Positions 4,730 through 44,588 of a DNA stretch of 44,588 nucleotides are shown one piece after another (the stretch's first letter is position 1; each line of letters opens with the position of its first letter). Below the pieces are notes generated by a model that was not told the origin of the DNA, ran no database searches, and worked only from the letters and a program-made list of their open reading frames with translations. This DNA is from Rhizaria sp. SCN 62-66 (lineage: Eukaryota): positions 62,001-106,588 of the forward strand of contig MEDY01000157.1 of the NCBI GenBank assembly GCA_001724265.1, read 5' to 3'. The translations under genes and the position numbers were made by a program.

Positions 4730-5580
4730 ATGCTGAAGCGTACCCTCGCGCGTCTTGCCCCGAACCCTTCCCTGCCGGTGATTGAGCCCGCGGTGAGCCA
4801 GTCTGCGTCCGCTCTGCGCCAGCTGCTCACCATCGAGTCAGCTGACGTGCGCAAGGGCCCCCAGTACCACTCGAGCCAGTACACCGACATGCAGCTCGAC
4901 GACTGGGCCACGCAGATCCGCCTCTCCGACGATATCTCCCACGCCCGCGGCCAAGCCCGCGCCTTTTACCGCCGCATCCTGCGCCGTTTGCCCTCGCTTC
5001 TCATTCACTACAAGTTCCACGAGATTCCCCCTCAGGAGGTGCGTCAATCCTCACTCTTACACAGCTTTGACCTCTACACTATGCCTGACTCCATTAATGA
5101 AGTCTTGTGGAGATTCATCTCTGTATTTCGAAACATCAGGATATTCTCTAGACTTCTCCCAAATATTTTCGCTATTCGCTAATGTCTTGTATGCTGTATT
5201 TTACTTTTCTCATCAATACCTTGCTCTTCAAACCAACTCTTTGCATTTCGTTCGCGTTGCACCCCCCACAGGCTGTCAAGGCGGTCAAGTTCTACTTCAC
5301 CCAGTTTCCTGCCAAGGACGCCGCGACGATGGACCGTCTGCGCTGGCAGGGCGAGGTCATCATGGCCGACGTCGTGCGTAACTACCTCACCTACTCCCAC
5401 GTCTCGGCGCTGCTTTTCCCCGACGTCTCTTCCGCGCCCCCGCTGCCCGCATCCGCGCTGCCATACAACGCTAGCACGCTCAAGGCGAACCCGGACAACA
5501 CGTCGTTCCTCGACGAGTTCCTCGACACCCGCGCTTTCAAGCCTAAGGTCGAGAAGTTCTCCGGCCCCGTCATCGTTTAA
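4730..5580 (+). CDS. NDUFA6: Complex I accessory subunit NDUFA6/B14 (LYR family), 205 aa; exons 4730-5038 and 5272-5580
   Basis: The spliced product SDDISHARGQARAFYRRILRRLPSLLIHYKFHEIPPQE/AVKAVKFYFTQF...DAATMDRLRWQGEVIMADVVRNYLTYSHV...SFLDEFL follows the NDUFA6 pattern (LYR-type FYR motif, downstream F, D-x4-G, HV, terminal FLxxFL). Phase-0 intron 5039-5271 (gtgcgt...cacag). Presequence-like N-terminus. Stop TAA. Confidence 0.75.
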
Positions 5581-9026: not shown

Positions 9027-9752
9027 TTAGTTGCGGCCGCGGCCACCGCCACGGCCACCACGGCCGCCGCGGCCGCCCCTGTCGCCGCCGCCGCCGCGGC
9101 CGCCGCGACCGCCGCCGCGGCCACTGGCACCACCACGGCCGCCGGCGCCGCCCCGGCCGCCGCTGCGGCCGCCGGCGCCGCCCGCGCGCGCGCTGGCCGT
9201 GGCGGCAACCTTGTTGGCCTTCTTCTCGGCCTCCTCGAGCAGCGCGTCGAGGTTGAGCGAGTCGGGGAGCAGGTAGTAGCGGATCGTGCTGCCGCGGACT
9301 GAGAGCGTCTTGAGCTCGGTCGGGTTGCGGTTCTTTACGACGCACTTGACGTCCTTGAGGTGCGTGTTCATCGAGTGGTCGACGCCCACGACGGTGCCCT
9401 CCAGCACGGTGCCGTTCTTAAGCTCTGTAGCGTGGGGGCGGTCGGAGGGCGAGGGAGCGAGATGCGGGAGCAGGAGCGAGGAACGTGAGCGCGAGGGTGA
9501 GAACGGAAACAATCCTGGCGAGGTTTAGGGAGGATGAAGATTATGAGATGATGAAAGATGATTGAAGAGATGAAACGTACCAAGAGTGACCGTCTCATTC
9601 GTCAGCCGCATAAGGAAGCTATATCATAGAAAATACAAAAGAGGATGGAGGTGAGATTCAAAGCGAGAGAACGCGCGGCAGTGGATAAGGTTGAGCGGGA
9701 AAGCGATGACAAAGAGGGTTGTGGAGCGAACGTACCGGACAAGATGCTGCAT
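9027..9752 (-). CDS. SNRPD1: Small nuclear ribonucleoprotein Sm D1, 150 aa; exons 9752-9736, 9618-9581, 9424-9027
   Basis: The spliced product [45 protein letters not shown]...[23 protein letters not shown] matches the SmD1 Sm1/Sm2 motifs and is followed by a Gly-Arg tail. Both introns begin gtacgt. Stop TAA. Confidence 0.95.
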
Positions 9753-13100: not shown

Positions 13101-15019
13101 AAGTCCTCGTATTTCCGGAAGAAACGCATAAGGTAGGAGACGACTGCCATGCTCGCGGAGACAAAGCTAGACCCCTCTGCAACAAGCTGCTTCTTGGGGT
13201 CAATCGCGATCTCAGGGATCGGACCGAACGCAAGCTCGATAGCTGTTTTCGCGTCCTGCTCAATCCAGTCTTCGTTCTGCGTTCCTGTTTCAGTCTCTTC
13301 AGTGTAATCCGGGTTGGTGTTGGTGGCCGTGCCCCAGCGGCGCCAGGCCCGCTCTGCGCCGACGCCGCTCCTCAGCACGGCCTGCTGCTCGGGCCCCAGC
13401 TGGCGCGGCACCAAGACGCCCAGGTCGGCGTCCGATCCCGCCATGGCGAGCCCCGCGGCGAGCGAACCGTAGGGCCGCGCGCTCGCCTGCGGGTGCCAAG
13501 CGCGCAGCGCGCGCGTGGGCCGCCCGGCCGCGGCCCAGAGCAGACGCGACTGGTGCGGCGACAGCAGCAGGCGCGAGAGCAGGCCCAGCGCGGGGGAGAA
13601 GGCGAACGGGCCGGGGCAGGGAAACGACGTGATCGTGGGGTCTTTAAGGGCAGACGGAGATCCACCGTTGCCGCTGCGTCTGCTATCGCTCTTGCCCTGC
13701 GCCTGTGTCGTTGCTACAGGGAACGCCGTAAGCGTGCGTAGCTGCGCGAGCGCTTGGTAGTTAATGAATGGCTCTTGGTAACGACTTGATGTGCTCAGGT
13801 TGCTGAATGCACTTAGAGCATGGCTATCTGTGCTTAGATTGATTCTAAACTGACTGGCACCGTCGCTGGCGTCAGTGTAAGCGCCCTAAGAGTACTGGCC
13901 GCCATACATGCCATCAACGAACAAGCCTTGCCCTTGCTGCTGCAGCAGCAGCTGCTGTTGCTGGTCCTGATGCTGATTCTGTTGCTGCAGCTGCCACTCT
14001 GCGAGAGGCGGAAACTTTTGGGGATCGTTGTAGGGATGAACCGCGTTGTTGTTACCGACTCCGCGACCCTTGTTGTTGTTGCCCCGGCCACCCTTTTGCT
14101 GCTGTCTAGTCGGCGCCTGACGAAACGTCTGCTGCTGCTGTTGCTGCTGGCTCTGCTGCTGAGGCTGCAGTTGGCCCGGCATGAACGGCCGAGAGCTCGC
14201 GTTGATATTGCTGTTGTTGGTAGCGCTGTTGTTTTGTGCGCGACTACGAGTGCGTTGGTTGCCGTTCCAGGGGCCGTGGCCGCCGGGCGCCGCGAAGTGG
14301 GCATGGCCGCCGCCGCCGTGGTTGCGGCCGGTGGTGGCGCTAAACGTCATCAGTGCTGGCTGCGACTGTGAGTGCGGCAGCGCTTGCGCGTCCGGTGCAG
14401 GCGGCTGACTGAACAGCAGTGGCGCCTGCTGCTGGTGGTGGTGCCACGGCAGCGGCTGAGGCTGCTGGTACTGCTGCTGCGGGTACTGCTGCTGATACTG
14501 CTGCTGCCGAGGATGGCCGTTGCTGTTATCGCTGTAGAACGGAGTCACGGGGACTGACGCATCGGTCCGACTCGCGACGCCGTCAGTCGGGCCGCTCAGA
14601 CTGGTTACCATTCCGCCCGCGTCCACGGGCGTGGTGGCCGCGGAGGCCGGGGCAGAAGCGGAGAAGTGACCATGGGCGTAGGGGGCGCCGGCGACAAACT
14701 GCTGCTGCTGGGGATAGTAGTGCGGCTGCTGCTGTTGATACTGCTGGTGCTGGGGCGGATACGCGTACTGCTGCGGCTGATTGAACTGAAAGTCGCCTAT
14801 ATTGTGCCCGGGAGGAGCAATTGTGTGACTGAACCCACCACCAGACGCGTAATCCCGTGGGTGTTGGTGCTGCATTTGCTGCTGCTGCCGCTGGTTGTTG
14901 TATCCTCTGCCGCTAGCACCACTACCGGCAGTGTTGCCCGCATTCGCACCACTGCCGCTCCCATTCCCTGGATAAGGCGCGTGTGGCGGGCGCTGTTGCG
15001 AGTTTCCTTTTGGGGGCAT
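10163..15019 (-). CDS. Non-canonical poly(A) polymerase / terminal nucleotidyltransferase (Cid1/GLD-2/mtPAP superfamily), ~1,618 aa, intronless; internal in-frame TAG at 13886-13888
   Basis: ORFs 13886-15019 and 10163-13444 share a frame, and the 147 codons between them are open. Pol-beta NTase motif PYGSLAAGLAMAGSDADL, third Asp in QAVDLS, RPLVILIKHWARMHGNNSAYDGTLNSFGYAMLVAHFL, and PAP-associated LLLRFFRYF...LIIVNASSNDLNVAKSV. Q/N/G/P/Y-rich N-terminus. Stop TAA. Confidence 0.85.
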
Positions 15020-15613
15020 TGTGCGCGCAGAATAAGCAATGCCTACTCACGGGGCAATGCGCAATATCCGCGGAGTAACAGATTCAATACGCACAAGGGA
15101 GGAGAAAAAACTGTGCAGTAGGACCGAGAGCAGCGTTTGAGGAGCGGAAGATAAATATGATTGGCGTGAGACATTTTGATCGTCAAGAGCACTGATATAA
15201 GAGCCATGGTTACAAATGTACACATAAAATATAGCTCGAATGTAGGCGTTTAAATATGCTGAGTTATGTACGTGCTAGCCTTCCTTGAAGTCCCGCACCT
15301 GCAGAGCAAGTTTGCCGTTGCTCCGATGCAGCAAAGAGTGAGTGACTGTGATCACGAGGTAAACACACACATTTTCAGCAGAATATATTGATCTATCAAC
15401 ACATCTGCATATGAAAACAATGCGAGAGTGTTATACATAAATTCAAACGTGTGTATATAGATAATTTAGTCGTGTCGCCCTCGCGGCTATGCGCTGGCAC
15501 TCAGTTTTGTTAACATAAAATCAATTCTGCATCATAACTTATCAGTCGTATCTTGTTCATCGAACCTTCACAAGCACAGCAAATCACCTGCATCAGAAGA
15601 CATCCGTCATTCT

Positions 15614-18600: not shown

Positions 18601-21600
18601 CAGCGGGCGAGCTGGCGCCGGCCTTGTCAGCGGCGGCGTTGTCAGCGGCGGCGTTCGCGGTGCTGTTTGGGGCGAAGGGCGAGTAGAACGAAGAGCTGGA
18701 GTTCTTCACAGTGCTGCTTGCACTGCTGCTGCTCTTGCTCTTGTTGGTGGGCGTAGAGGGCTGCGGCAGAGTGAGGTCGTCATCGCTGGCAGGGAAGGCG
18801 CTGGGGCCACCCTTCGTAGGACCGGCGCCGTCCTCCTCCTCAGCCTCCTCAGTCTGCGCCTGCTGCTTCGCCTTAGCCTCTGCAGCAGCAGCAGCAGCGG
18901 CGGCGGCCTCAGCTTCGGCAGCAGCCTTAGCATCGGCCTCGGCCTTCGCTTTAGCGGCCGCGGCCTCCTCCTCAGCCTTGATACGGGCAGCCTCAGCCTC
19001 CGCAGCAGCCTTCGCCTCAGCATCAGCCTTCGTCTTAGCATCAGCAGCAGCCTTGGCTTCGGCCTCAGCACGCGCTGCCTCAGCCTCAGCTGCAGCCTTG
19101 GCGTCGGCCTCAGCCTTGAGGCGAGCAGCCTCAGCGGCAGCCTCCTCTTCGGCCTTCTTGATACGAACAGCCTCGGCCTCGGCCTCAGCAGCAGCCTTGG
19201 CGGCAGCGGCGGCAGCCTCCTCGGCAGCCTTGCGCTCAGCAGCGGTTCGCACGGCCTCAGCAGCAGCCTCCTCCTCAGCCTTGGCTTTGGCATCTGCCTC
19301 TGCCTTGGCCTTAGCCTCAGCAGAGGCCTGTGCCTCAGCCTTCTTGGCAGCCTCAGCAGCAGTCTTGGCCTTGGCAGCAGCCTCATCGTCGGCCTTAGCC
19401 TTGGCAGCAGCCTCGGTTTCGGCTTCGGCCTTGGCCTCCGCATCAGCAGCAGCCTTAGCAGCAGCCTCAAAAGCAGCATTGGCAGCAGCCGCCTCAGCAG
19501 CGGCGGCCTCGGCGGCGGCGGCCTCGGCGGCGGCGGCCTTGGCGGCGGCGGCAGCCTCGGCAGCAGCCTCAGCGGCGGCAGCAGCCTCGGCAGCAGCCTC
19601 AGCGGCGGCAGCAGCCTCGGCGGCGGCAGCAGCCTCCGCCTCGTCGTCGCCCTCGACCTGCACATGGGGCAGCGTGGCGGCGACAATGCTGGCGTCGTCC
19701 GCGAACAGCAGCAACGCGCTCATCAGCAGCGGCTGCGCCAAAGGGCGCAAGCCCTTGGACTTGCCCGACTTGTGCGACTCGGTCTCAGTCTCGGTCTCGG
19801 TGATCGTGGCGCGACTGCTGTGGCTGCCGAGGGTCCCGTGGCTGCCGTGGTCTGGCAGCACCGTGACCGTGGGCGCGGGCACGGGGGTCGGCAGGTCGTC
19901 GTCGTCCGCTGCCGCCACGCGGGTGCCGTTAGTGCCCATACTGCTGTTGTTGTAGAAGTAAGGCAGCGTCGACGCCAGCAGCTCCGACTGCGCGGTCGTG
20001 TTGAACGACTCCGTCACAGACTGCTTCTGCTCCAACTCGGTGTCAGCGTCGCTGGCGACAGCGACGGTCGCGTCGTCGTCGTTGCCAACCTCATCGTCGC
20101 TGCTGTGCGTCGAGTCCGTGGTCACGACGTCTCTATGGCCCTTAGACTTGCCACCGTTAGCCTTAGACTTCGCCGAGGAGCGGCCGCTCTTGCCCTTACC
20201 GGAACCCTTCTTGCTGCCCTTAGACTTGGGCTTAGCAGTCTCTCCACTAACAGCAACGGTCTCGGACTCAGCCTCGACCGCATTGGGCTCAGGCGCAGCG
20301 AGTGCAACCGCAGCAGCGTCAGCAGACTCAGCCTCGGCGGCCGCAAACTCGGCCTCAGACTCGGACTCGTTCTCGGCATCGGCGCCAGCCTCGGCCTCGG
20401 TAGCCTTGCCCTTGCCCTTGCCCTTCTTGCCCTTGCCCTTCTTGCCCTTCGCGCTGGAGCTGCGACTACGGCTCTTGTTCTTGCCCTTGCCCCGCGCGCT
20501 CTCCGCGCTGGGCACAGCCTCGGCCTCGGCCGCAACAGCGCTGGCTTCGGTCGCGGCGCCGGCGTCCTGCGTCTTGGTCTTGCTGTTGCTGCGACTCGTG
20601 CTGCTGGCGAGCGCGCTGAGGTCGCGGCGGCTCGGCGACCGCCCGCGGGCCTTGCCACTCTTGCTCGGGGCCTCGGCGTCAACGTCAGACTCGTCGGTCG
20701 CGTTCGCGCCCGTGTTTGCACCCGCGGCATTGCCACTGTCGATGGGGGCGACCGGCGTGACCGGCGCGACGGGAGAGCGGATGCTCGAGTGTGGCGACGG
20801 CAGGCGCGGCTCGAAGCGGCGCTTGTGGCTCATCAAACTCTTGTTCCCCACGACGCCGCTGCCCGTGGCCTTGCCCTTGTTCTTTGCCTCGGCGTTCTCG
20901 GCAGCAGCGGCGGCGGCGGCAGCGGCAGCGGCCTCGGCCTCGGCGTCGCCCTCGGAGCCAGCGACATCGTTGTCGTTGTCGCTCTCACTCTCCTCTTCAG
21001 CGGCGTCGCCCGCAGCGGCAGCAGCAGCAGAGGCGGCCTTGGCACCCTTGCGCTTGGCGCTGCCGCTGCGCCGACGGCTCCCGCTGCGGGCGCGCGCGCC
21101 GCCCCTCTTGCCGCCGCGCTTGCCGCCCTTGCCGTGGGCCGGCTTCAGCAGCTTCGCCGTGTCGACCGGCACAGGCGCGTGCATCGCCTCCCAGACCGTG
21201 ACGCCGCGCTTGAACCGCTCCTCATCCTCGCGGCGGCGTTTCTCGCGCTCGAAGATGTCCACGTCCTCATCCCCGGGCTGCTCGCCCTCGGGCGCGTCCT
21301 CACCGAAGAGCCGCACTAGCGCGCGTACAGCCGCCAGGTCCTCCGACGTCGCCTTGCGCACGCGCGGGCCCGTGGGCGAGAGCGCCTCCGAGGCGTCGAT
21401 GCGGCCCTCGGCCGCCAGGTGCGCCATCAGCAGCTCGATCGCCCGAGCCTGTGATAGAGAAAAAAAAAAGAGAGGCAATATCGCGATTTGATGAGCGTAG
21501 TTCGGTTTAAAAAATATACAGAATATATAACAATACCAAATATCCGTTATTGTCAGAGGTTAATCCATTAAATTCGTTGGGCATGTCAAACAGCTTGCTG

Positions 21601-29013: not shown

Positions 29014-32000
29014 TCACTGCTTATCCGGAGAGTGATACTCCGGCTTAATGTGACCCGGCAAGGGCATCGGCACTCGCAGCGACGGCTGCGCACTCGCGCT
29101 CCCGGCGTTTGCGCCGCTGCCAGGTGCGTTCGCATTGCTGCGGCTGACTGAGGCAGAGGCCTCGCGCTGCTGGTACGCCAGCGCAGACCGTGTCCCCATT
29201 ACGGGCACGCCACCAACGGGTGCAGGCAGCGCCGGCACCGCGGGCGCGCGGCCCGGAGGCGGCGAGTCAGTTTCCCCGCGCTGCGCGTCGTGCAGTGCGG
29301 ACAGCGGCGGCGGGGGCACTAACAGACGTGCAGGCGGCGAGCCCGTGGCGCCAGCAGTGGCATGTGTGGAGGATGGATTGGGCAGCTGTGGGGGCGGTGA
29401 TGCGGCTGTGGACGTAGAATGATGACGCGGCGGCGTGGCAACAGCAACCGTACACTGTGATGTTGCATCAAACGTGTTGCTGCGGGCTTTGTTCCAGTCA
29501 TCGTTGTTGCCATTGCCGTTGATATGATGAGTGGTATCCACGTAATCGTGGCAGCCATCGTTGTCAGCGTACGGCACCGGCACCACAGGCAGTGTGGGGC
29601 CAGTCAACCGCGGTGCAAGCTCAAGCACCACATGTGAAGACGGAGACGAGTGCACTGCCTCGTATTCCACTCCGCTAGAGCTGTGATTCGCGGAAGCACT
29701 AGCGAGCGGCATCATCTCGACAGCAGCCGGCACAGCACCGTTGCGTTCATCGTTACGGCTGACACTATTGTTGTAGCCGTCGCTGGTACGATTCATGGTG
29801 AAGTTAGAACTTGAATTCTGGAGCGTAGCGTAGTTGTCATCATCAAAACCGCCATTAGGCGCAACAAAACCGTTTGCATTGACAGCGACAGCAGGCTCAA
29901 CGTCAAGTGCGAGATTATTAGCGACGTGTTTATGACCCCTGCCGACGCCGGATGCTGTAAACATCTCGATGGCGTTGTACAGAGTGAGGTTGTCGTCGGG
30001 GGTTGACTTGGAAGCCGGGCCCTTCGGCTTGCCGTTGCAGCAGCAGAAAGAGACGACGACCAGCACAAAAGCTTTGACGCAGATACTTACGGGCTTCATG
30101 GCAAAGATCTCAATCACGTTGGAGATCGCAGAAGCCTGAAGCCATTGCTTGGTGTTGTCGCTGTTGTTCCGGTCGAGCTGGATGCCATACACGATGATCA
30201 GCAGCGCAAGAACAATGACGTAGATCCAGAGCAGCACGAAGCCAAAGAGGCGGAGACCGAGCGGGAAGGACCACGACTCGCGGAACCAGACCATGAACAA
30301 ATCATAGTCGATGTGCACGAGCAAACGCAGCTGGTTGCGCAGCTCGCGCACGTCACGAATCCCGCGGGCGTTGTCAGGAATCAGCGCATTGCCAGGGCCG
30401 TGTGTCCAGCCTCCAGCTTGCGCGATCGAGTGCAGGAGTACGCGTTCATCCTCGTCACTAATGATCGGGTTCCGTTTCATGCGGTGCTCATTGCGCGTCG
30501 CATACTGCATCTCTGAGATGCGGTCTGTGTACTTGAGCTGCGCCACGTGCTCCGCGTAGCCGTAGATCGCAGACTTGAGACGGCCCTGCTGAGAGCGGCC
30601 AAAGAGCAGGCTAATGAGCACACCGACAGGGATAAGGATGGCGGCAGAGATTACTGAGGTGACAATGGTGCTAAAGCCGACGCTGCCGTCAGCACTGCCG
30701 AAGAACAGCGCGTTGATCATGTAACCTGTGAGCACGAGCACAAAGCCAGCCGTGATGCGGCCAACAGAGGAGAACGCGTTGGTGTCATAACGCAACACGA
30801 CAGAGAGCCAGAGATGGTCGTGCTTGAGCAAATGGCGCGAAAAATCAATCCATCGCTCAGTGAAGGCCATCTTCTCGACGCCAGCGTCGGGGTTGAGCAC
30901 GGCCGACGACGGGAGCGACGCAGACGTGTCGCCCGAGACGGCGTCCCACTGCTTGCGCTGCGGGTCGCTCCACTCGCCATGGTAGTGGCGCAGTGCACGC
31001 GCATCTTTGCGGCGGTCAATGAGTGCCGCAATAAACGCAAAGATCAGATAGGCCACAAACCAAACAGCGCATGTGATGAGCGGAAGCGGGTGTGCCTGGA
31101 TGTTGGCCCATGTAAGGTTCTTGAAGTCACTCGCAGAAAGCGTGTTAAACCTGGGTAGGAAGTTATTGAAGTCAAGTCGGACACGGAACAGAGTCAGGTG
31201 CGTGCATTGGCACGTCGTCGTGGTGTTGGTGCTTGAGACGGAAACAAGCTTGCAGCCCGTAGTGCTCCACTTGCCGCTAACGCCACTCGGGTCGGCCTTC
31301 CACCACTCGCATGTAAAGCTGACGTCAGGCCAGGTTGGCTTCGGGTGCGGCACTTCAAGCGTGAAGAACTCGCCCCCAGCAGCGGCCAGTGTCGCAAAGG
31401 GGCTTCCAGCATGGTAGTACGCGCCGCTGCTGGTGCCGTTGAGATTGAAGTTCAAATGCTGCTGCGCAGGAACAGTGACACCGTCGGCCACAGTCATGTC
31501 GGTCACGTTCGAGAGCGTGCGGTTGAACACGGTGAACGCGAGTAGCGGCGACGACTGTGAACCGTTGAGGTACGTGTCAGCGCCCATGCCCGCAAGGTTG
31601 AAGATGGCTGAGTCCTCGATCATGGCCATGACGACCTGCAGAGCGCTAACATTGAGCGACTGCATCGACGGCGGCATTGTCACACGCGCCATAACAGGCT
31701 CTGCCCCCGTCCCCGCAGCGGTGTTGGGCATCGGTGCCTCCATGCTCGACGGCGCTTGTGCTGTCACAAAGGCCTGCGAGGCAACGGATAAGCCAGCGAA
31801 CTTCACGGTCGTTAGCGCGTCTTGTCCGACGGCTTGCTGCGAGAGCGAGCCCATCGCAAGCACGTTCATCTGCTGCGCAATCGCATTCACGACGTTCGTA
31901 GCCTCGTTCTTGAGCGTGACCATGCGTGCGCCCTCACTATTCGTGTCAGCAGTCGCGTTGGTAAGCGTCATGTTGTGGTTGAGAGCACTGAGCTCGCTCG

Positions 32001-35000
32001 CAAACGCGTCAATTAGCATCTGCGTCGCCACCAACGCGGAGTCTGCCGTCGAAGCCTGCATGCCGTTGAACGCATCCAGTGACGCCAGGGACGACGTCTG
32101 TGCAATCAAAAGTTGCATTGCTTGAATGCGCGCATCACTGTCCAGATGCTTGCCGTCAGCACAAAGCTGTGTAAGCAGCTCAATTGCCACCTCGGAGTAG
32201 CCCGACACCCTGTTGAACTGGTTCGTATCTTCGGTTGTCGGCTCAGGGCTACTACCACCACTATTAGCTGACTCCTCAAGCGCAGCTGCAGCGCGGCGCG
32301 CGTCCTGGGAGACTGTGAGCATTTCTGCCACGCTGCGCACCGCAATGAGTAGTCGTGCGCGGAAAGCGGTGTTCTCCGCCGCGGTGATACTCGCAGTGTC
32401 AAGCGCATCAGTGATGCGCAGGGTAGTTTGGGTCACGGTGGCGACATCTGAGAGCTCAGCGGCTGCGTTAAGCAAGGTGAAGAGATCCTCTATCTCTGTT
32501 GCGGTCGACCCATTGTCGGCGTTGTCAAGTACGTTGTACAGAGACGGTGACACACGCCGCCGTGATGACTCAGCCGGCGGGATGAAGGGCACCCTGATCT
32601 CAACACGCGTCCGAGAGCCCCAGATGTCGGTGATATACACAGCGACCACGCGCACAAAGTCGTCATCCGCTTGGCCCGCGCGCAAGGTGGCGTTGAGCGT
32701 CGACAGCGGCAGCGGCATGCCAATCTCAACCCACGTGCTCTTGCTCACACCGTGCACAACACGCTTGGATTCAGCGTACCAGTGGTATGTCAGTGGCAAA
32801 TCCTCCGGGTCATCCTCCCAGCCGCTGCATTGCAACATAAATGGAGTGTCGGAAACAGCATGAGTGGCGTTGGCGTCAGCAAACGCTGCAGTACAAAGAC
32901 CAGAGCGCGGGGGTACGTTAAGATGAAAGCTCCCAAACCCAGACACAAGCTCAGACGGTAGTGTGCCAACTGGCAAATCTTGAATCTCAGCCTGGGTGGG
33001 CACAACCGTGCCATCAGTGGAGTTGTACAGTGAGAGCCGCATCGTGTAGACCACGCCGGGCAGGAGCTTCTGGCCGGCGAGGGTCAGCGTGTGCACCATG
33101 CGACCCGAGCCGTCACTCGCGGGCGCCGCGCCGCGGTGCAACACCAATCCGGGCTCGTCCAGGTTCGCATTGCGTGTGTCGCACGACCATAATGCGATTG
33201 GTTTGCGCGCTTCATTCGCGGCGGTGCTGGAACCGCCGTCTACGCGTGACACGTATGCAGTCAGTATCAGGGGGTTCTGCTGGAGCAACTGCGCTCGGTC
33301 TGGCGGGGCGACTGTTACCGCGTACTGAGGGGGATTAGGCACAAGGGTTACAACGGTCGCTGCGCTAACAGTGGGGCGGCCAGCCTCCTTGCCCACGGTA
33401 ACAGAGAAACGAAGTGAAGTCATCCCTTCGGGTACGTTGGAAGTCAACCTTTCCGCAGGCACAGTAAGTACGCTGGGTGTCGCTGAAGTAAGATTTGCCA
33501 AGAGCATAGCTGTGTTGACACCGAAACAAAGTTCAGTCGGTGTTAGGTTGTCCACGCACGTCCACACAAAGGTTAAGTTCGCAGACGGTGCGTCGGTTGC
33601 TGGGTTAACGTCGGGGTCACGAGAGGCTGCAGCAGAGAGAGTGAGGGGTAGTTGCACCGCGTGAACACGGTCACCGCCAGTCAACGATGCACGCAGTGGA
33701 GACGCATTCACGGTCACAGAGACAATGTCTGAGTTAGGATAGAGGTGGTCGGTAGTGTTATCGGTCACAGAAACTTTGAACTTGTACGGTGCGCTACGCG
33801 CTCTCATTGCGTATGCGCGAACACGAAGCGGCGCCAAGTCTCCCGTGAAGTCGACATCGACAAGAGTGTTGTTGTCTGCATCCACTTGTTCCCACGAGTA
33901 CGTAATGCTGTAGCGCGTCGTCATCTCGTCGCACAAACCGACACGCGAGACCAGCGCATTCACGAACAGGTTACGCGAGGGCAACGTTGCGACGTCTTTG
34001 CTGCCCGCAATGGCAATCTGTGGCAGCGGTGCTTTGGACCGCGTCACAGAAACGCTCGTTTGTTCCGATGTACCATACCACGTCGTTAGTTTCAGTGTGA
34101 ACGTGCTAGTCTGCCCCTCGTCAAGAATTGTCGCAAGCACAGACGGAGTCAGAGTGAGCAGAGGTGCATACATCGGAGACTTGGTCGCGCGGAACTGCGT
34201 GGACGAGTTGTACTCACCAAAAGTTGTCTTTAAATAGTGGGTAAAGTTGGTGACTTGCTCCGTCCTGCCCGTGACAGACCACTCGTAGACAAAGGCGAGC
34301 CCACCGTTGTTGGTGCTAGCTGCGGTCGACAGCGTAAGGCTGTCACAAGGTCCCACCGTCGTTTGAGCTGTGATGACGGGCACAGGGACGAGGGTCAGGT
34401 CGACAGGAGCCACGATTAAGAGCGATGTGCGCGGGAGGAAAACTTGGCCTTCACCCTCGATTGCGGTGCTGCCGCGGCGAATGACACTGCTAAGAAGGGT
34501 CAATACAGTACCGACGCGGGCAGTGAAGGAAGCACCGAGCACGATGCTGAAGACTATTTGTGCAGGCATTGGACAGAATACGCAGAAACAATGTGGATAA
34601 TAGATAAGACACAACGTTCGCAGGATGTCACAAAAATGAAATGCAAAATGTGCTTCATAGACAAAGTTCAGCAGTGCAAACAAAACACGGACTCAAATAG
34701 AATGGTTGATGCAATATCATGTGGTAGCATTGCAGGAAAAAACGTACCAGTCGGGGAAACCCACGCACACGTTGGCTTATCGCCGAGGGTCGCAGTAGAC
34801 AACACCAAATCACAGTTCTCTGTCGACGCGGACGTCGTGTTGCGCGGCTGCTGCGTCGGGAGATCAAAGACAATCCGCAACTCATTCATGGCCGTCGTAA
34901 AACGCGGAACCTGGGGCTCGGGATAAGGTAGCCGAGGAACGGCAAATGCAGTGTATGGGGGCAGGCCATTGCCAGCGTGAAGGACCTTGATGTTGCACAT

Positions 35001-38000
35001 GGCATACCCACTGCAAAGAAATGAGATCGGGTGAAGCAGCGTGAGATAAGATTTGAAATCTAGAAATCAGGTTTGATATAAAATGTTATGTTGACAGAAA
35101 AAGTGGGCATCCCGTGATAATTCTAATGTCGTACCTTGATTGCGGCGGCGATGCCGCATTTGTCGCTGCCCTAAACGTCGTGAAACCGGCTATCTGGTCC
35201 ACGGGATCTGTCGCCATCGTCTCATACGGCGTCTCCTGCACCCACCGGCCGCCGTAGAGCGTGAACGCAGGGATGCCTTGCATGGCGTACTGCGCGGTCG
35301 GATCATTCACCAGCGCAAACGTATGCGACGCAAGCGCAGGCAGAGTGGTCGGGAGTAGACTGTAGTTCGCGGGCGCCGATGGGCCAGGGTCGGGGACAAT
35401 CGCGTCCGCCCACACCGCGCCGTAGCCCAGCTCGGCGTCCTCGATCACGGGGTCGCTGGCGTAAGCGCTGCTCACAACGATGACGGACAGCGTTTTGGAC
35501 AGCACCGCGGCGGACGGGGCCGCGCCGGTGGGGGGCGCAAACATGGCAGTAAGCTGGCCCGTAAGTGTGTTGATGACAAACATATCCGAGCTTGAGGCGT
35601 GGCCCTGAGTGAGGCCGCCGCCACGGGGAGAGGCGTGAAGACGCATCTGGGGCACAAGTGAAGATTCGTAGACAAGCTCGCCTCCAGCTGCCGATGTGGT
35701 GAAGTGAGTGTTTTTGGACCTCGGACCGCTGTACAAGGTCAGTACATCATTTGTAGGGATCCCGGGTGCAAACGAACTATACGCAAGCGACTCCTCAACT
35801 CGTCCCCCGCTGCCAAGTCCGGCTTTACTGATCGCATTGGACCATAAAGCAATAATAAGACCCGCGCTATCTGCTGTAAGGGTGATTGGAGATTTCAGAG
35901 GCAGCGTAAATTCGGTGCCGGAGGTGCCGAAGTCGGCGCGTGTGTGTTCTTTGGTCGAATTGTCAGCAGGGAGGTAGTCATTCAACTTGGCATTTGGCGA
36001 ACTATTCAAGCTCATGACACCAAGTTTAATCAACACAGACACATCGGCATCCGCTGGGCGTGTGAGATAAAAGGTGATATTCCGTAATGTCATTCCGGGG
36101 AGCAGTCCTGCTTGTCTGAGCAGATCGCGCGGCAGGAAACTCACAACTTTACTGGGAGCGGCGTTGCTGCCTAGAGAGTCGAGCGGGTATGTCAGCGTCG
36201 TCGGGTTTGCGATTGTGGCGAAATGAGTAGGGCGGGACAGTGTGATCGGCGCCGCAGACCGATAGATGTCAACATACACGCCGCGCGCAGTCATGCCGCC
36301 AAAGCAGTACACCTTGGTGCTGTTGGGTAGAACGTCGCAACTGTGGTCGTAGCGCGAACCCATAGTACGCGCAGACACACTGCCGGTGAAAACCGGGATA
36401 ATAGCAGCGTCAGTGATAGTTGGCTGGAGCTTAAGGCTGTGGCCAGCAAGAAGAGTCCACGTTTCCTGCACAGTGTCAAAGCGCCAAATATCGTCAAGCG
36501 CACCGTGCGCGCCGACACCGCCGCTGAGAATGAGATCCTCGCCCACGGACACAAGAGAAGCGCGAGCGCGGGCTGACGGGCAGAAGCTTGCGATGCCGAC
36601 AGTGCTCCCGACAACAATATCAGACTCCATGGCGATGTAGTCTCCATTCGTAGAGCAGCCGACGTACTGCCAAGTGATGGCACCGGTTACTTCCGCGCGA
36701 TACCGCCACAGATCAGCGCGGTAGACAACCTTCAAGGTCGCGGTGTTAGGAATAAGGCCGCCGTAGGTGTACACCCAATGTTGGTTATCATCGGTGCGTT
36801 TCAGGATCGCAGAGCTGTGAAAAGCGCGGGCGCCAGGATAGCCGGGCGAGTAGGATGCGGGATCGCGGCGGCGCTCGTGGCCGTTGGAGCCACCTGAGAC
36901 AATCTCCGTGGGCGGTAAGATGGTGGGAGACGGTTTGGCACCAAAGGGGTCGCGACCGGGGACAAGCTCAGGTGGCACTTGAAGGGATGACGCAACCACC
37001 TGGATCCGCCAGAGACGCTCGAAGTACTCTCGCTAAAGTAAAACAAAAACAAACAAAAAACACGAATATATCGGTGAGATTCTTGAGTCGAATTGCGGAT
37101 GAAAACACTCAGCGATGCATGAAAGCATTGTAAAAATGAAGCAAAGCATGATTAAAAAGATTATTGTAAAACGTACCTTGCCGTCTCCTGTGCTGACAAT
37201 GCCACCGAACAGGAAAAGGCAGTTGCCCGGTGGGTAATATACCAACGACGCGCCCATATATTGCCCTGTGTATGCCACCTTGCCTTCGGTCGCATTCGTT
37301 TCGAGCACCGGCACCTCAGCTGCAGAGCTACGGTCCTGTGCAATCAACACGCTGCTGCGCGCAGACAGTAGGTGCGCTGAAATGACAGCAGACATCCCTG
37401 TCGTATCTGCACGGTCTGTGCCGCCCGCAATAAATGTCACCGTAGAGCCCAGGGGCATTCCCAGAGTGATCGCTGCCGTCCCGGTCAGACTGTGCGTTGT
37501 CGTGCTGGCGGCGTAGAAGCGCGGCTTACCACCAGGCAGTGGTGTGCCGTCAGTGTCGACAAGAGCGCGCACGGTGAGTGGGGAGCAGAGCCGGCCGACT
37601 GTGCCGGTCATGCACGAGCATGGATAGGCAAGGTCGTTGGTCGGTGTGCTAGTGTTGCCCATACACGTCAGGGACTGCACTGCCGGTGCAGTCGGTGGCG
37701 CATACGCGCTACGGCTGGTCTCGCAGTGTTCGCCGTAGAAACCAGTGGAGCAGTGACACTTGTAACTCTTGGTACTTAGACCAACAAAGAGCGTCGGCGA
37801 GGTAGAAATACAAGTCGCGGAATTGCAGACAGAGCAAGTGCCCCCATTCACGCACGGGTTGGTTGCGCACGGCGACGTGAGCGCAACCAGTGCGGATTGA
37901 TCGACGTCAGATGCCATTTGGCTAAACTCGTAATACGGGTATGAGGAAGTCACACCGCTCGCATGATAACTGGTGGGGTAAGTTAATCCACCGGTGCGCA

Positions 38001-41000
38001 TGAGCACGGCAGTTGGGTTAGTGTACGCTGCGTTCACAGAACCGACTGTGCTAGGAAGCATCAAGAAAGAAGCTCCAAGCCTGGCATCGTCACTCGTAGT
38101 TGCCCATGTGAAGCTCTGAGACGGGGGCGTGGCGTTGCTCGTGGGGTTCTTTAACCACGCCCACGCTGCAACCTCCGAGCCGACGCTGTGCGACAAAGGT
38201 GCAGCAGCTTGCGCGATGAGTGACGTGCGCACCCATGAGCTGTTGTGTAGTTGCTCTGCAAACACTGCGAACACAGTGCCATCAAGACATGATTCATCCT
38301 CGTTGTCTGCATAAATTCCGTCGTTGATCGTTGTGCCCGGGTTCAGCATTGGCCGCAATCCGTAGCCGACGTACAAAAGCCCCTCCGCGTCGGCGGTCAT
38401 GCTGGCGTAGGCGCGCGCGCCGGGGGCCTGTAGCCGCGAGGGGGCACCAATAGTGACAGCAGTGCTGCGCGCGTGCGGGCTGCCTTGGACGGCCCAAGTG
38501 AGCGGGCCGGAGAGGTACGCCCACTGCTTCTTGGAGAACGAGAACACCCAAAGGTCGGACATAAACGCCGGCCGCGGGAGCACCCCGCCGGAGCCCAAAG
38601 GCACACCGTGAAGAGAACCGCCGAAGAGATAGAGATAACGGCCGTCGTGTGAAAAAGTCATGCTGGCGCCGAGGCGACAGCCAGGGTTGTTGGTGGAAGC
38701 GTAGGCGCCCGGTGCGCCGGCGGAGGGCAAGTAATCACCCTCGCCAAGGTTGGAGAGGCCGGACATGCGTGCCCACCTAGAACAATACAAAAATATGGAG
38801 CGACATGCAGAATTGTGAGTGATTGAGCAAGGTTCAGTGCAAACCATCAAGCATAGCTGAGCTGAGGGGTCCGTAAATTAAGTAGAGGCATCTCTAACAC
38901 AACACAAAGTGAAACGTACACTGCGTCATGAATTGCAGTTGATGAGTTTATCTTAGTGTACAGGCACCACAAATCTGTGTTATATGAGTCGCCGTAGTTT
39001 CCGGACATATATGTCTGCGTTCCCGAGTACATGCAGAACATTGAGTCGTTGTCGGCAGCCGTTGATCCTGAGAAGGATGCCTTGGCAAAGCCCTGGCGCG
39101 CGCCAGGATGGTAGCTGGCATCCGTCTCACCATTAGAGCCGTACACACTTTGATAAGGGTCAGTGCCTGCTGGGTATGATGTTGTGTTCAAATGGGGGAA
39201 GCCTGTCGTTGTCCAGATCTGTAACAAGAATTGGCAAAGCAAAATCAAGCCAAAGACAGTAAGAGTGAGCATTAATAAACAAATGTAACCACAACGCGCG
39301 CATGTCAACTAAAAATAGATCTGTCTCATAAATGGATGTCAGAATTTCATTAACCGTAAAGCACTTTGAGTACCTGAAACGAGATCGAATACACCCAGAG
39401 GCCCGGCTGTGCCACAAAACTATCTGCGTACAAATACATGTACTAGCCATCAGGCGAAAACCAGGCATGTGATTCCAGACTCGGCGGTGGTGCAGTCGCA
39501 TTCACATATGTTTTGCCGATAGAAAATGCCGGGATCAACGCCTGCGTGAAAGTGTGCGTCTCCGCGTAGGCCGAATTGCGCGGCATTGCAGTCATAGTGT
39601 TCGCAATCAAGTTCACCCGCGTGAACGCCGCACTGGCGGTTGCTACTCCAGTCACAGAGTTGATTGTCATGCCACCAAAGCTGTACACCTCACCTGTGCC
39701 GGGCCGGTGCGCGACGGCAGCGAAGGGCAGCACAGTCGGTGCGGTGTTGCCCGCGAGCAAAACTGAACCGTGTCTGAGCTCGAACTTAGCCTTTGCTGCA
39801 TCGACTGATACGTTGCCATTAGCGCACTGCGCGCCCTGTGTGTAGCTGTTGCAGTGGCAGAATGATGACCCGCCACCGGCGACGCAAGCGCCCATAGCGC
39901 CACAATAGATGAGAGAAAAAGATGATGGACATGTGTTGCCCTTAGAGCTTGTTAGTGAAGTGCGGATCTGCTCTCCGTAGACAATATCGTTTTGGGGCAA
40001 CCATGGCGTGAACAATGCATTCATATTGTTCTGCAATGTGGAGTTATGGCAAGCGTCTGAGCCGTAGGCTGTGCTATCAATACATGTCAAATTAGTAGGG
40101 GTATGGATGACGTCAATCGTCCATAAGTCGTCATGTACGGTCAGCTGCTCGCAGCTCTCGAGACCACGTTCCACTGCCGGGTTTGCAAAAAACGCCTGCT
40201 CAGCCACGTGGGTCGAGCCCACAGTCCAGCCGCCGCGGAGAAAAAGCGACGTGTCCGTGGTCACCCGCGCCGAGAGCAAACTTGAGGACGGGATCGACAG
40301 TGTGGCGCCAAGGCGCGCGCCGGGCCAGTACGGAAACGGAACCTCACTGCCTGGCACTCCACTGCGGGTGACATTTGAGCCGGTGCGCGTAATCGGCGCG
40401 CTGAAGGCGCGAACAAGGCGCCAGGTCAAGTTGGCACGGAAGAACTGCCACAAATCGTCCAGCTGTGGGGCCGCATGGAGCGCGATCGTGACCGGGGGCT
40501 GCGTCAGCGGGTGGCTATGCAGGGGGGACCGCAGCAGCAGAACGGGACGCGCGGTGTACCGGTCGAAGTTGCGGGATGTCTTTGAAGCTTCGGGTGTGGC
40601 ATACTTAAGAAGAGACATGGAACGCACTGTTTGGCCCTCGTGCATTGCAAGCCCGAATTTGACTGCCTGTGATGTATCTATGCCAGCACCTACAAAGACG
40701 TACTCAATAGCCATGTAGAGTATGGCGTTTCCGGACGACAGCGTCGAGGAGAGAGTATCGGTATCGTCTTGGACGTCCTTCATATAAGGGGTATTGATGG
40801 CCATAAAAGTTCCAGGCGCCCAATTTAACGGATCAATCATGACGCCAGGTTGTTTGAGCAAAGAAAGCTCAATAGCATCAAGATAATGCGGGCCTGCGTT
40901 GTCAAAGTCTCCCAACAATGTCGGAACTAACAGCGTACGAACGCGGAAGCGACTGCTTCTATCCCACGTTCCGGACTCGGACAACATTGAATGTTGGCCT

Positions 41001-44000
41001 AGTTTGACCATAATGTCCAGCGAGGGCAGGTTGGAATCAACCGGCAGACCTGCAGCGAGGAACTCGTCACTCGAGTACAGAAACGCATGCAGCGACAACG
41101 CGTTGCTCTCGGTCACAGTGGAGTTGAAGCGGCCCTTAAGCGGCAGCGTGAACGGCGCAGCAGCCGGCAGCGCATCGATCGCTGTTTGTACACCATCAGT
41201 GCCGTCAGGACGCACGAACGCGCCAAGACCGTGGCCGCGGCCGCCGTAGAGGAAGATGTCTCCGTTGGCCGCAGTGTTCATGGCGTGGAACACGCGGCCG
41301 CCGGGGAGGGACGGAAGGTTGGAGCTGGCGGGAAAGATCACGCGCGGCTGTCCGCGCTCACCAGCAGTCGGCGTCCCCGCCTTTTCATCCAGCCGCTGCC
41401 ACGCTGCGAGGGCCGGGGGCGTGAGGCTGAGCAGCCAGAGACCGGCCAACACGCCCGAGTCGTTTTCGGGCCCTGGAGCCGTCTGCAGCGTCGTGTCCAC
41501 TGCGCTGGGGGCGGAGAGCAGCAGCGCGGAAAGCGTGCCGCCGTACATGACGAGGGTGTTTGCCGTCGCCGTGTTGTGCGTCTCCCACACCAGCGCGGCG
41601 TAGGCGCGGGCCGCCGGCGTGGACGCGCCACCGCGCAGAGGGAGGTTGCTATCGGAGCTCGTTTCGGAGCCTAAGACGCGGTGCCAGGACAGGGTCGTCC
41701 CGTCCGAAAGATTGTCGGCGATGTACATCGAGTCAGACTCGTAAACGGAGTTGTAACCAGCCGGATTTTGAGTCGATGCCAACTTGTACCCGCCGTAGAT
41801 GACGATGATCTTTCCGTGCGCAGCCATTGCAGCTGCGGCAGTGGGCGGGGGTGGAGACAAGTTGTCGATTGCGCTGGCCGAGGAAGGCCGCGGCTGTGCC
41901 GCTGTGTTGCCGCGCCACCACGCCCACTGCCGCTTGTCGAGGCTGAACGACCACATATCATCAAAGAATGCCTGCTTCAACACGTTCGCGGTGATGATAG
42001 GATAGTAAGCGCCACCAAAGAGCCAGATTATGCGCGTGGATGCGTCATACGCTAGCGACGCTGAGTGCCGCGCCGCTGGCCACAACGACGGTGAGTAAAT
42101 CCCGGAAACCAGCCCGCCCACGCCGAGACCGGCGGGCAGCCGGAGCAGCGCGGGGTCGCCGTGCAGCAGCGTCGTGGTGTTGGCCAGCGAGTCGACCATC
42201 CACAGGTCCGACAGCAGCGCGGGCTCCGCCATTGGATACTTTGCTGGGGAAGCAAGTGGGAACGTTTGCAGGGCAATACCGCCGAAAAAGAACGAATACT
42301 GACCTGACAGAGCCGCTGTGCGGAGGGGGCTCTGCGGGCCGGCTGCAGCGCCAGAAGCGGTAGCATGTAGGTAGCGCGGGCGCGGGCGCGGGGCCGGGCG
42401 CGCAGCGGAGACGGACAGCGGCAGCTGCGGCGCCAGTGAGTACCAGTCCTGAAGCGGCACGGGGAACTCCACTGCGGAAATAAACGGGTTCGACGCGCGG
42501 TGCGGCTGGTAAAAGTTGCGGGGGGTAAATGCAGAGATGGATGCGACTCCGGACGAGGCCGACATTGGACCCATTTTCAAAGTCTGATAAAGCGACACAG
42601 CAAAGAGATGTGAGTGAGCATTATTTTTACAATCATAGCAGTAAAAAACGCGTGTTGAGTGAGTACTAGTCGTACACGTAATGACGTACCTAGTTGAGAG
42701 TGTATGTGGTCGAGAGCCATCCGTCAGCAGTAAATCCCAGTGTCGGGTCCGAAGTGAGCTCCGACGGGGCGGACACAAAGTACATCGACAACACAAGATA
42801 AAAACTGTTCGCGTCGACGCCACTGACGCCGTGGATGTGCAGACTCGAGATCGGGATTTGGCAGTACCCTGAGATCAGGATCTCATGGGGCGCGACCGGC
42901 GGCACCACGGATACGGTGGCTGAGCCGCCGTCGAGGACCCCGGCGGTGTTGGCGGGCCGCGCGCTGACGGTGCAGAACGTGCCCGGCGCGCCGCGGTACG
43001 TCTCGGTACTGCTGCCGCCGCGCTTGAGCCCCAGGCGGAGGTAGCCGCCGCCGTTGCCCTGGAGCCCGTAGTCTTTCGCCAACCAGTTCGCTGATGCTGC
43101 GGAGAAGTCAACCTGCCAGCCGTCGGTGGTGGTTGATGCGACGGTGTCGAGTCTATACACGGGGGCCGACACCGTCAAAGTGCCGAACTTGAGCGCTGGC
43201 GTGACCGTAAACGCGTTGCTCGCCACAGGAACGGTCTCAGTGCTGGAACGCCAAGGCACAATGCAGGAAAAGATGCCAAGATACATATCCGGGATGTCGG
43301 CCGTGATGCTTACCGTGGGGATCTCCATGGTCGCCGTGAGGCCGCCAACGATCGCGGGCGTGCCGAGCGTGATCACACTGCTCTGCAGGGGACTATAGTC
43401 AAGATAACACGCGATGTTGGTGGAGTTAAACGAAAACGTCGCATTTGCACTCAGTGTCAGGACAAAATATGCCGTGCCCAGCGCCGCAATGGAGCGTTTG
43501 ATGCTGCCGCTGTACGAGAAATGGATATCGACACGGTTATTAGTGCGAATCCACTGGTTCTGGTAGTACACTTTAGGACCCCTAGGAGCAGTCAGCTAAG
43601 GCGCGCCAAAGATATTAAACGTTGGTGAAGCTGTAACTATCGAGACGTTGTTGAAGTCGGTCATTACCGCCATCGTGTGAGAGTCTGTCAATGTTGACGA
43701 GGGAACCAATGAGACTTGGCAGGAGAATGTGATGTTTGTGGCAGGCGCAGTGGTGCGAAATACAATATCTTCGCTCGCAAAATTGCCAATAGTGCCAACA
43801 ATTGTCACAGTGGTAGTCACTGACTCGATGCGGCAGTTACGCATGGTGCCCGTCTGGATGACGATGAAGGAGGAGGAGTCCATTAAGGAAAGCTGAAGTG
43901 TGGTGATGCCAACTTCGAGCGAGGCCACTGTGCCGCTGAAGGCCACAGTGGAGCCGCTAAGGCCATTTTCGATCGTGAAGGCGTGCAGTGCCGTTGGGAA

Positions 44001-44193
44001 GGCCACGTAGAAGAAAAGAATGAGGGCGACTGCGTGCCCGGAAGAGTGTGAACATACTGTTCTCGTTGTGGAATGTACGTGAGAAAGGCGTTCCTGATGT
44101 TGGTGCTTCGCGGCTGTGGAGAGCACGACGATGCATAAAGTCGCAGGAACGCCACTGTCCTGTGCTCTGCTACGCGGTACCGTGCTGGTGCAT
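29014..44193 (-). CDS. Giant (~4,730 aa) polycystin-1/PKDREJ-like receptor: signal peptide, beta-rich region, Kelch-like repeats, EGF-like domains, REJ, GAIN/GPS, 5 TM; three internal in-frame TAGs
   Basis: Exons ~44056-42690, 42583-39374, 39218-38920, 38776-37177, 37032-35135, 35010-34748 and 34553-29014 are joined by six phase-compatible GTAC...AG introns. The 5' end is tentative: mini-exon 44193-44181 plus intron 44180-44057 would give MHQHVCSHSSGHAVALILFFYVAFPTALHA. Kelch-like P.AR...h.h.GG...DLW units; EGF CATNPCVNGGTC...CHCSTGFYGEHC; REJ-type LTLSAAASRDPD, LTFVWTC and NVPPRSGLC...CSGWEDDPEDLPLTY; GPS CEWW...WSTTGC...CQCTHLTLF; PKD1-type HLWLSV...F...R TM block. TAGs at 43596, 42690 and 39443. 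Stop TGA. Confidence 0.8.
31185..31312 (-). other. GPS autoproteolysis motif (C-C-T-H-L/T-L-F) within the polycystin-like gene
   Basis: CEWWKADPSGVSGKWSTTGCKLVSVSSTNTTTTCQCTHLTLF has the four Cys, the conserved Trp residues and the HL/T cleavage consensus. Confidence 0.9.
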
Positions 44194-44588
44194 AGCAAGC
44201 AGGATGATCAGGCCTCTATAAGCACGCAGTCAGAGGTCGAAAGAAGTTAAGCTGTTGCTTGTGCGCTGCCGTCTGAGGTTGCGCGTTATCGCAAGGTGGG
44301 TGTGGCGAGACGGACTGATTGAGGAGCGATGCTCGGGTATAATAAGAGTGTAGTCACGTGTGCTTAATTCTTATTCAAGCAACTGTGGAGCGACACGAAT
44401 CATAAGGGGAGTCGCGAGCGTCGCGGCGCACGCACAAAAGAAGGAGAAGGGTTAAAAATGTGGTCGGTTTTACAGAGTATATACGGGTGTCTGTTACCGT
44501 CGACATTCTGCATAAAATTCCAGTCGACAGCTTTTGCCGGTCGCGATTTAAAGGTGGCGTTTCTTGTGTATACACACTTCGTTTTCCT

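Follow-up and report, generated by a model that had tools for sequence, protein, structure and literature searches.

In-frame UAG codons in a giant Kelch-type gene point to a eukaryotic nuclear code in which UAG alone is reassigned

The window analyzed here, a stretch of 44,588 nucleotides from contig MEDY01000157.1 (positions 62,001 to 106,588 of the forward strand), is eukaryotic nuclear DNA, and it carries on its minus strand a gene of about 4700 codons or more whose reading frame runs through three TAG triplets. The third of these (TAG no. 3, at 39445..39443) interrupts a beta-propeller blade of the Kelch type, and the conservation that surrounds it makes it highly probable that it is real and translated as an ordinary codon. 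Two other genes carry one TAG each, so that there are at least five in-frame TAGs in the window. The best reading of these data is a nuclear code in which UAG would have been reassigned while UAA and UGA still act as terminators. Reassignment of UAG alone is a known but rare kind of change in the genetic code, and the window points to an additional case of it.

Results

The reading frame continues through TAG no. 3

The site is codon 1144 of a frame that opens at 42874, and around it the minus strand reads ...PPPSLESHAWFSPDG-TAG-YMYLYADSFVAQPGLWVYSISFQ before reaching a donor, GTACTC, at 39373. A preliminary description of this DNA had placed the TAG in frame inside a propeller blade and had the frame continue through a phase-0 intron. 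Both points stand: the first part of the blade spans 39374..39490, the TAG lies 23 codons 5' of an intron of 155 nt (39373..39219) with which the spacing in homologues agrees, and the blade is finished by the following exon (38920..39218, IWTTTGF...AIHDA). The paralogous unit of the same protein that it had quoted, MTFSHDG-R-YLYLFGG, is also present, at 38661..38518. The TAG blade was assigned by paralogy and pattern, and no Pfam model reported that blade itself. It shows the strand, turn, hydrophobic strand, LW..(Y/F) and W of the Kelch or galactose-oxidase-type repeat (Pfam Kelch_1-6, Beta-prop_ATRN-LZTR1), but it differs from it in carrying YAD (AD, ME or AE in homologues) in place of the GG doublet. 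The elements on which the argument rests are these:

39443..39445, minus strand: TAG no. 3, a probable sense codon, for the residue directly preceding the second strand of the Kelch-type blade
39374..39490, minus strand: first part of this blade, PPPSLESHAWFSPDG-x-YMYLYADSFVAQPGLWVYSISFQ, placed by its coordinates, by identity with the homologue P0008 and by a low-confidence structure model
39219..39373, minus strand: phase-0 intron of 155 nt, GTACTC...TTACAG, with CTCAC 51 nt from its 3' end, placed by homologue spacing
38518..38661, minus strand: paralogous blade MTFSHDG-R-YLYLFGG, that is MTFSHDGRYLYLFGG...DLWVFSFSKKQWA, in the same gene and in an open reading frame (ORF) with Pfam Kelch matches above cut-off
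43596..43598, minus strand: TAG no. 1, ..FGAP-x-LTAPRGPKVYYQNQW.., with the homologue P0100 aligned through it and V opposite
42690..42692, minus strand: TAG no. 2, last codon of its exon (AAC TAG/GTACGT), where P0100 has L opposite
42584..42689, minus strand: phase-0 intron of 106 nt, GTACGT...TTATCAG, placed by sequence and by the spacing in the homologue P0010

We compared the 1174-residue frame with 1.84 billion representative proteins and obtained 97 matches, ten of them with E < 1e-30. Five cover residue 1144 (P0002, P0003, P0006, P0008 and P0012), and each of the five gives a single ungapped tblastn alignment across TAG no. 3, with E between 9e-28 and 0.0 and with H, E, N, A and D opposite the TAG. 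P0008, the closest relative (63% identical), agrees with the window at 17 of the 23 positions that separate the TAG from the splice site; the four others carry on into the next exon, where their tblastn alignments occupy 39215..38955. The ungapped alignments, the identity with P0008 and the continuation into the next exon together show that selection on the protein still acts downstream of the TAG, in this very frame. When the search was restricted to longer proteins and to residues 880-1174, no match was returned.

The splice that follows can be placed to the nucleotide. The exon ends at 39374 (TTT CAG/GTACTC) and restarts at 39218 (TTACAG/ATC TGG, the beginning of IWTTTG). In tblastn alignments, P0003 and P0012 have exactly three residues between the aligned parts that flank the intron, and this spacing confirms the splice because it matches the F, Q and I of the window. 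The ORF of P0008 enters intron-like sequence at the same place (..VYSVQNK, then VRIEH..). We also considered by eye a tiny intron that would excise TAG no. 3 and rejected it: the sole GT..AG nearby, of 19 nt, breaks the frame and ruins the conserved blade.

Upstream, P0100 (51% identical by tblastn) aligns without a gap through both TAG no. 1 and TAG no. 2. The latter, followed by GTACGT, forms a good AG/GT donor, and after its L the ORF of P0100 reads VR.. into an intron of its own. Across the 106-nt intron behind this donor, P0010 has 33 residues from DGWL to AFTP, equal to the window when counted by eye. Taken as a whole, the homology-supported part of the gene comprises 4713 codons with three TAGs, no TAA and no TGA, and the frames that follow TAG no. 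1 are open for 1143, 614, 648 and 1892 codons. TAG is a rare codon in it (3/4713), and all the TAGs occupy variable loop or linker positions. The trace of these TAGs can also be seen in the databases. A public protein of 293 amino acids (P0099, 100% identical, from a contig of 2336 nt) corresponds to 43571..42693 of the minus strand of the window, cut between TAG no. 1 and TAG no. 2; since its ends match these two TAGs, a standard-code ORF caller must have fragmented the gene.

The alternative is that TAG is a real stop, in a pseudogene or null allele, through a sequencing error, or overcome by occasional programmed read-through. About half of the random nonsense mutations in this gene would indeed give TAG. 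However, 4713 codons of the gene contain three TAGs and yet neither TAA nor TGA nor any frameshift, with some 4500 codons open and conserved after TAG no. 1, and indels would be expected as well in a gene decayed enough to have taken three nonsense mutations. Termination at TAG no. 3 would cut a propeller blade in half, in-frame TAGs occur in two other genes, and the database ORF P0099 ends at TAG no. 2. Nor is there a shared read-through signal, since the contexts downstream of the five TAGs all differ (CTG, GTA, TAC, GGC and GAG). We therefore regard real termination as very improbable. Pyrrolysine was dismissed, being a bacterial and archaeal system, and we know of no precedent in nuclear genes for U-to-C editing of the mRNA that would turn TAG into CAG. 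The weight of the case for translation lies in the conservation across the sites and in the intact frames, rather than in stop counts.

The TAGs of the two other genes are the following (GC stands for G+C content):

13886..13888, minus strand: in-frame TAG, ..GGQYS-x-GAYTD.., which joins frames of 386 and 1240 codons in a gene at 10166..15046
7958..7960, plus strand: probable in-frame TAG, ..ENRAQRF-x-ERNRLLG.., behind which GC remains near 0.7 over 62 codons up to TGA 8147..8149 and then falls

UAA and UGA as probable remaining terminators

Eight gene ends could be placed in the window, using ORFs, composition and, for one gene, the C-terminus of a homologue. Five of them are TAA, three are TGA and none is TAG. 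At least six of these ends are followed by a fall in GC (from 0.66 to 0.35 or from 0.65 to 0.42, for instance), and GC is level across four of the five in-frame TAGs, the fifth, TAG no. 2, preceding an intron. The reading in which UAG alone would be reassigned fits this distribution: TAG is found in frame and is absent at gene ends, while TAA and TGA are absent within the gene and present at the ends. By analogy with documented cases, UAG would be decoded by a tRNA with anticodon CUA, no other anticodon pairing with UAG and not with UAA, and the release factor eRF1 would have lost its recognition of UAG. The argument from the CUA anticodon, and reassignments of UAG alone with UAA kept as a stop, are presented in the sections of PMC5304391 and PMC11687900 consulted here.

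A number of observations weigh against this reading. The decoder is not visible in the window, where ARAGORN finds no tRNA gene and Rfam no family; there is no eRF1 gene in it either. Some 52% of random nonsense mutations in the gene would yield TAG, and the probability that all in-frame stops are TAG is ~0.14 for three sites and ~0.04 for five, which is weak evidence alone. That none of the eight gene ends is TAG has p ~0.17 if TAG ended one-fifth of genes. The lack of sense TAA is not significant, with ~1.7 expected if its use paralleled that of CAA. The analyses of the amino acid disagree. Finally, a scan for coding potential around every stop (flanks of 30 codons), which was not used as evidence and had one training block out of frame, ranked the TAGs at 43596, 39443, 13886 and 7958 first, fourth, sixth and eighth, and it did not separate stops cleanly, as TGA 9624..9626 and TAA 21507..21509 (both on the minus strand) were among its top four. 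The former lies upstream of an exon encoding an LSm protein and the latter adjoins an intron at 21560.

Could UAA have been reassigned as well? In such a code TGA would be the sole stop and UAA and UAG would both specify Gln, as is reported for Amoeboaphelidium, for some green algae and for many ciliates. Behind four of the five TAA gene ends an in-frame TGA comes up after 7 to 29 codons, and the zero count of sense TAA in ~4700 codons carries, as said, no significance. Against this, no homology-supported exon contains an in-frame TAA, and GC falls right behind most TAA ends as it does behind TGA ends (0.66 to 0.35, 0.57 to 0.39). In addition, the stretch behind the TAA at 5578 is full of TAG and TAA, and the single TAA that joins long frames is intronic: the candidate at 21560..21562 (minus strand) was rejected as a sense codon on finding it inside an AT-rich in-frame intron. 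In-frame TAG in nuclear genes is what the window has in common with codes of this kind (NCBI table 6; Amoeboaphelidium protococcarum, ulvophycean algae, hexamitids and many ciliates), from which it differs in that its TAA acts as a terminator (five gene ends and no in-frame case, a small sample). For Amoeboaphelidium, the change of both codons to Gln is described in the parts of PMC6299283 and PMC5304391 that we drew on. We consider it quite unlikely for the window.

TAG no. 3 does not name the amino acid

TAG no. 3 had been put forward as the best clue to the inserted amino acid, a claim that must be given up. The TAG stands at a turn position that changes fast, no two homologues having the same residue there (A, H, E, N, D), and that carries little information. 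What did hold is that the TAG aligns with a polar residue in mid-repeat, the homologues having small or polar residues there; the hydrophobic residue that would have spoken against the proposed Gln is missing, with no bulky hydrophobic in 5/5. A bulky aromatic residue is unlikely as the meaning of TAG. An AlphaFold2 model of the 255-residue exon end has a mean pLDDT of 34.7, for which reason only its secondary structure was considered and burial was not taken from it; it gives a strand, a 5-residue coil ending in the TAG residue, and two more strands. In this model TAG no. 3 would be the last turn residue before a beta strand, a place that seemingly prefers a small or polar residue.

We counted the residue at this place (x1) in 56 blades fitting the pattern G-x1-x2-four hydrophobic residues-GG-like pair. 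Within the family (24 blades) it is Q in 7, N in 3, T, S and D in 2 each, and H, E, Y, V, G, A, K and R in 1 each; in other Kelch proteins (32 blades) it is N in 9, D in 5, S and K in 4 each, G in 3, R, E and T in 2 each, and A in 1. Leu thus occurs in none of the 56 and Gln in seven. These counts are not independent, as five of the seven Q represent one blade in different family members, and the lone V comes from an EGF-like stretch that matched the pattern falsely. The residue had been expected to be usually K, R or Q, which the counts contradict, being mostly N, Q, D, S or K. The comparison of repeats that the preliminary description proposed was thus run; polar and small residues dominate it and Leu is absent, but Gln is not singled out.

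The other two sites are variable too. Opposite TAG no. 1, no. 2 and no. 3 stand V, L and A in the closest relative (P0100 for the first two, P0008 for the third), and more distant homologues have V, T and S at no. 1 and G, A, T, R and N at no. 2. Over the three columns, MAFFT aligns 15 homologue residues with the TAGs, among which there is no Gln and one Leu (that of the closest relative at TAG no. 2). We then applied the idea of a 20-way likelihood comparison, taken from PMC5304391, to two MAFFT alignments and the three TAG sites, with these log-likelihoods (lnL) relative to the best residue:

LG+G4: A 0, V -0.2, L -1.4, T -2.1, I -2.2, S -2.7, E -4.6, K -4.8, Q -5.4
LG+C10 profile mixture (fixed branch lengths, 15 residues tested): A 0, V -2.7, S -2.7, T -2.8, L -4.7, Q -5.9
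Empirical table (1252 aligned window-relative pairs, 60.5% identity): V 0, I 0, L -0.4, A -1.3, S -3.3, Q -5.5
LG+G4 without the two closest relatives (ranking nearly flat): S, T and A ~0, Q -2.1, L -2.5

In the three analyses that include the closest relatives, Gln falls below Ala, Val, Leu, Ser and Thr, and it is behind Leu by 4.0 (LG+G4), 1.2 (LG+C10) and 5.0 lnL (empirical table). The preference for Gln over Leu stated in the preliminary description is therefore borne out by the blade turns (7/56 against 0/56), contradicted by these three analyses, and not established.

Leucyl-tRNA synthetase ignores the anticodon, and a tRNA-Leu with anticodon CUA, derived from tRNA-Leu(CAA), could insert Leu at UAG, TTG and TAG being one change apart. 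There is precedent for this in the rhizarian exLh, according to the sections seen of PMC5304391, and in a phyllopharyngean ciliate, according to those of PMC11687900. Leu is what the closest relative has at TAG no. 2, with V at TAG no. 1, and it outscores Gln in each of the three analyses with the closest relatives in them. Nevertheless, it stands opposite only one TAG in three, is found neither in the 56 blade turns nor in the column of TAG no. 3, and drops to -2.5 once the closest relatives are removed. Moreover, UAG is abundant in exLh (384 in 71 genes, as given in the same part of PMC5304391), whereas it is rare here. Leu is a tentative possibility.

The seryl- and alanyl-tRNA synthetases ignore the anticodon too, and Ser or Ala would suit the turn position (S in 6 and A in 2 of the 56 blades). 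In the four analyses, in the order given above, Ala is best or near-best (0, 0, -1.3 and -0.2) and Ser obtains -2.7, -2.7, -3.3 and 0. Ser has a reported precedent in Scotinosphaera (Li et al. 2021, as cited in PMC11687900). However, there are three sites only, Ala is without precedent, and A, S and T, which exchange more readily than any other residues, score well at any variable column, so that their good scores may lack information. We see Ser or Ala as possible but somewhat doubtful. With Ala, UAG would have a meaning that no nuclear stop codon has been reported to have.

Gln would make the code that of Iotanema, NCBI table 15, with a tRNA-Gln of anticodon CUA derived from tRNA-Gln(CUG), and it is the commonest outcome of nuclear UAG or UAR reassignment in the extracts of PMC11687900 and PMC5304391. 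Besides its seven occurrences among the 56 turns, it is the most frequent x1 in blades whose next residue is aromatic, like the TAG blade (Q 3, R 1, Y 1), the TAG at 13886 lies in a low-complexity stretch rich in Q, G, S and Y, and an alignment by eye sets a Q of P0002 opposite TAG no. 1, where MAFFT sets V instead. On the other hand, no homologue has Gln at TAG no. 3, and the V, L and A of the closest relative at the three TAGs are hardly what it has opposite Gln elsewhere: of the 34 Gln of the window that align to it, V is opposite none, L two and A one. The lnL of Gln relative to the best residue is -5.4, -5.9 and -5.5, and still -2.1 without the closest relatives, and the non-independence noted above touches five of its seven blades. 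We find Gln doubtful.

To put it another way, Gln is favored by no analysis, Leu is favored only via the closest relative, and the local structure at TAG no. 3 argues against Leu. With the known cases as a prior, we would still place Leu first, tentatively, followed by Gln, which we hold doubtful, then by Ser, which is unlikely, and Ala, more unlikely still, with the other residues sharing the rest. Three variable sites cannot name the amino acid and one variable turn position does not identify it either, which is a caution against reading Gln from TAG no. 3.

Known codes with a reassigned UAG

The list of nuclear codes in which UAG alone changed, as found in the consulted sections of PMC11687900, comprises exLh (Leu), Iotanema (Gln), Scotinosphaera (Ser), Protocruzia (Gln) and phyllopharyngean ciliates (Gln and Leu). 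In the rhizarian exLh, 71 stops comprise 56 UAA and 15 UGA, and UAG falls on a conserved Leu at 82 of 86 hyperconserved positions (PMC5304391, in the part seen). The window resembles it in that only UAG would be reassigned, in that TAA is the commoner stop (five TAA against three TGA), and in that two of the three TAG sites face a Leu or a Val in its closest relative. It is unlike it in that TAG is rare and found at variable positions only, and in that Leu is unproven.

To our knowledge, fornicates have no mitochondrial ribosomes. The window, in turn, encodes a ribosomal protein uL3 of the mitochondrial type with an N-terminal extension (a search of the PDB with it returned L3 of the mitochondrial or bacterial type), in addition to an LSm protein. 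This makes it very unlikely to come from the lineage of Iotanema spirale, an anaerobic fornicate in which, following the excerpt of PMC5304391, UAG means Gln and UAA and UGA are stops. What the two share is a sense UAG, UAA kept as a stop and a putative tRNA with anticodon CUA; Gln is not established for the window. With Scotinosphaera, a green alga whose UAG is Ser and whose UAA is a stop in the passages of PMC11687900 drawn on, the window would share a nuclear change limited to UAG, and Ser scores acceptably in it; nothing links the window to green algae. A literature search for a further lineage that fits found none, which is not proof that none is in print.

The window could also come from a eukaryotic lineage with a new departure from the standard code. 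This would be a lineage with mitochondria, a GC-rich genome and spliceosomal introns, in which UAG and not UAA would have been recently captured for a residue that is small or aliphatic (Ala, Ser or Leu rather than Gln) and would still be rare and confined to unconstrained loops, at an early stage of reassignment. We judge this scenario unlikely. A further code that splits UAG from UAA would aid the study of stop-codon capture, especially with TAG still rare and at tolerant positions. There is a practical side to it as well: gene callers that assume the standard code split a gene of about 4700 codons or more, and annotation needs the right translation table.

The host gene and its introns

The host gene extends on the minus strand from ~44100 to TGA 29014..29016 and is intron-poor. 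From its 5' end come a signal-peptide-like stretch, an N-terminal domain, an exon of 1070 codons, a short exon, two large exons and a frame of 1892 codons. The product is predicted to be secreted or to sit in a membrane; it combines Kelch-type propellers and EGF-like modules with a GPS motif and with a membrane part that resembles polycystin. Its remaining features are:

39374..42583, minus strand: exon of 1070 codons that encodes Kelch-type repeats plus a cysteine module of the EGF type and carries TAG no. 3 (Pfam below cut-off, tblastn)
38920..39218, minus strand: exon IWTTTGF...AIHDA, its last codon split, supported by the tblastn alignments of P0002, P0003, P0006 and P0012
38777..38919, minus strand: phase-2 intron of 143 nt, GTACGT...TTCTAG, placed by sequence
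29017..34692, minus strand: final open frame of 1892 codons with GPS motif and multi-pass membrane part, without TAG, TAA or TGA inside
29014..29016, minus strand: TGA that ends the gene after ...EYHSPDKQ, with GC falling from 0.65 to 0.42 behind it and P0012 stopping at the equivalent place

The two large exons, again with propeller and EGF-like modules, lie within 38776..35089 of the minus strand. In the ORF 35089..38877, seven Pfam models score above cut-off (PF13964, PF13418, PF01344, PF07646, PF13415, PF24981 and PF24681). In the exon that bears TAG no. 3, the Kelch/Attractin beta-propeller models PF24681 (33.7 bits) and PF24981 (21.9 bits) stay below their cut-off of 50. The final frame contains the GPS domain PF01825 (33 bits, cut-off 22.5) and is 60.6% identical to P0012 over 34575..29032. 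In a protein atlas, the cluster nearest to the gene product is a GPS-domain family. A scan of prokaryotic genome contigs with the membrane part gave 17 pattern matches and no relative among them.

At the other end, the signal-peptide-like frame (..AVALILFFYVAFPTALHA, 44040..44210, minus strand) has no ATG back to the upstream stop at 44208..44210, and a nearby ATG (~44054) is out of frame with it. Probably translation starts in an exon further upstream, or else the sequence has a one-base error.

The three introns that could be placed exactly (106, 155 and 143 nt) all begin with GTAC and have CTCAC 31-51 nt before the acceptor, which is a likely branch-site motif of this organism. Two introns end in TAG, with acceptors at 37033..37035 and 38777..38779 on the minus strand. 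The first of these TAGs had been a candidate sense codon linking the frames of 614 and 648 codons and was discarded, as it is the splice acceptor itself.

Neighboring genes

The gene at 10166..15046 (minus strand) terminates with TAA 10163..10165. Its Q-rich N-terminal frame of 386 codons begins MPPKGNS, and the frame of 1240 codons shows by eye a nucleotidyltransferase-like motif, ..YGS..GSDADLGVLV.., with no Pfam match. For the gene at 7538..8146 (plus strand), a search for homologous proteins returned none; its frame carries repeated C/L-T-F-x-P motifs. Between 15617 and 27933 extends a block of 12 kb with ~70% GC and open frames of 1981, 858 and 1251 codons on the minus strand and 1812 on the plus strand, none with a Pfam match. 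In appearance it is a giant low-complexity gene or a pair of them, and the in-frame intron that holds a TAA lies in it near 21560.

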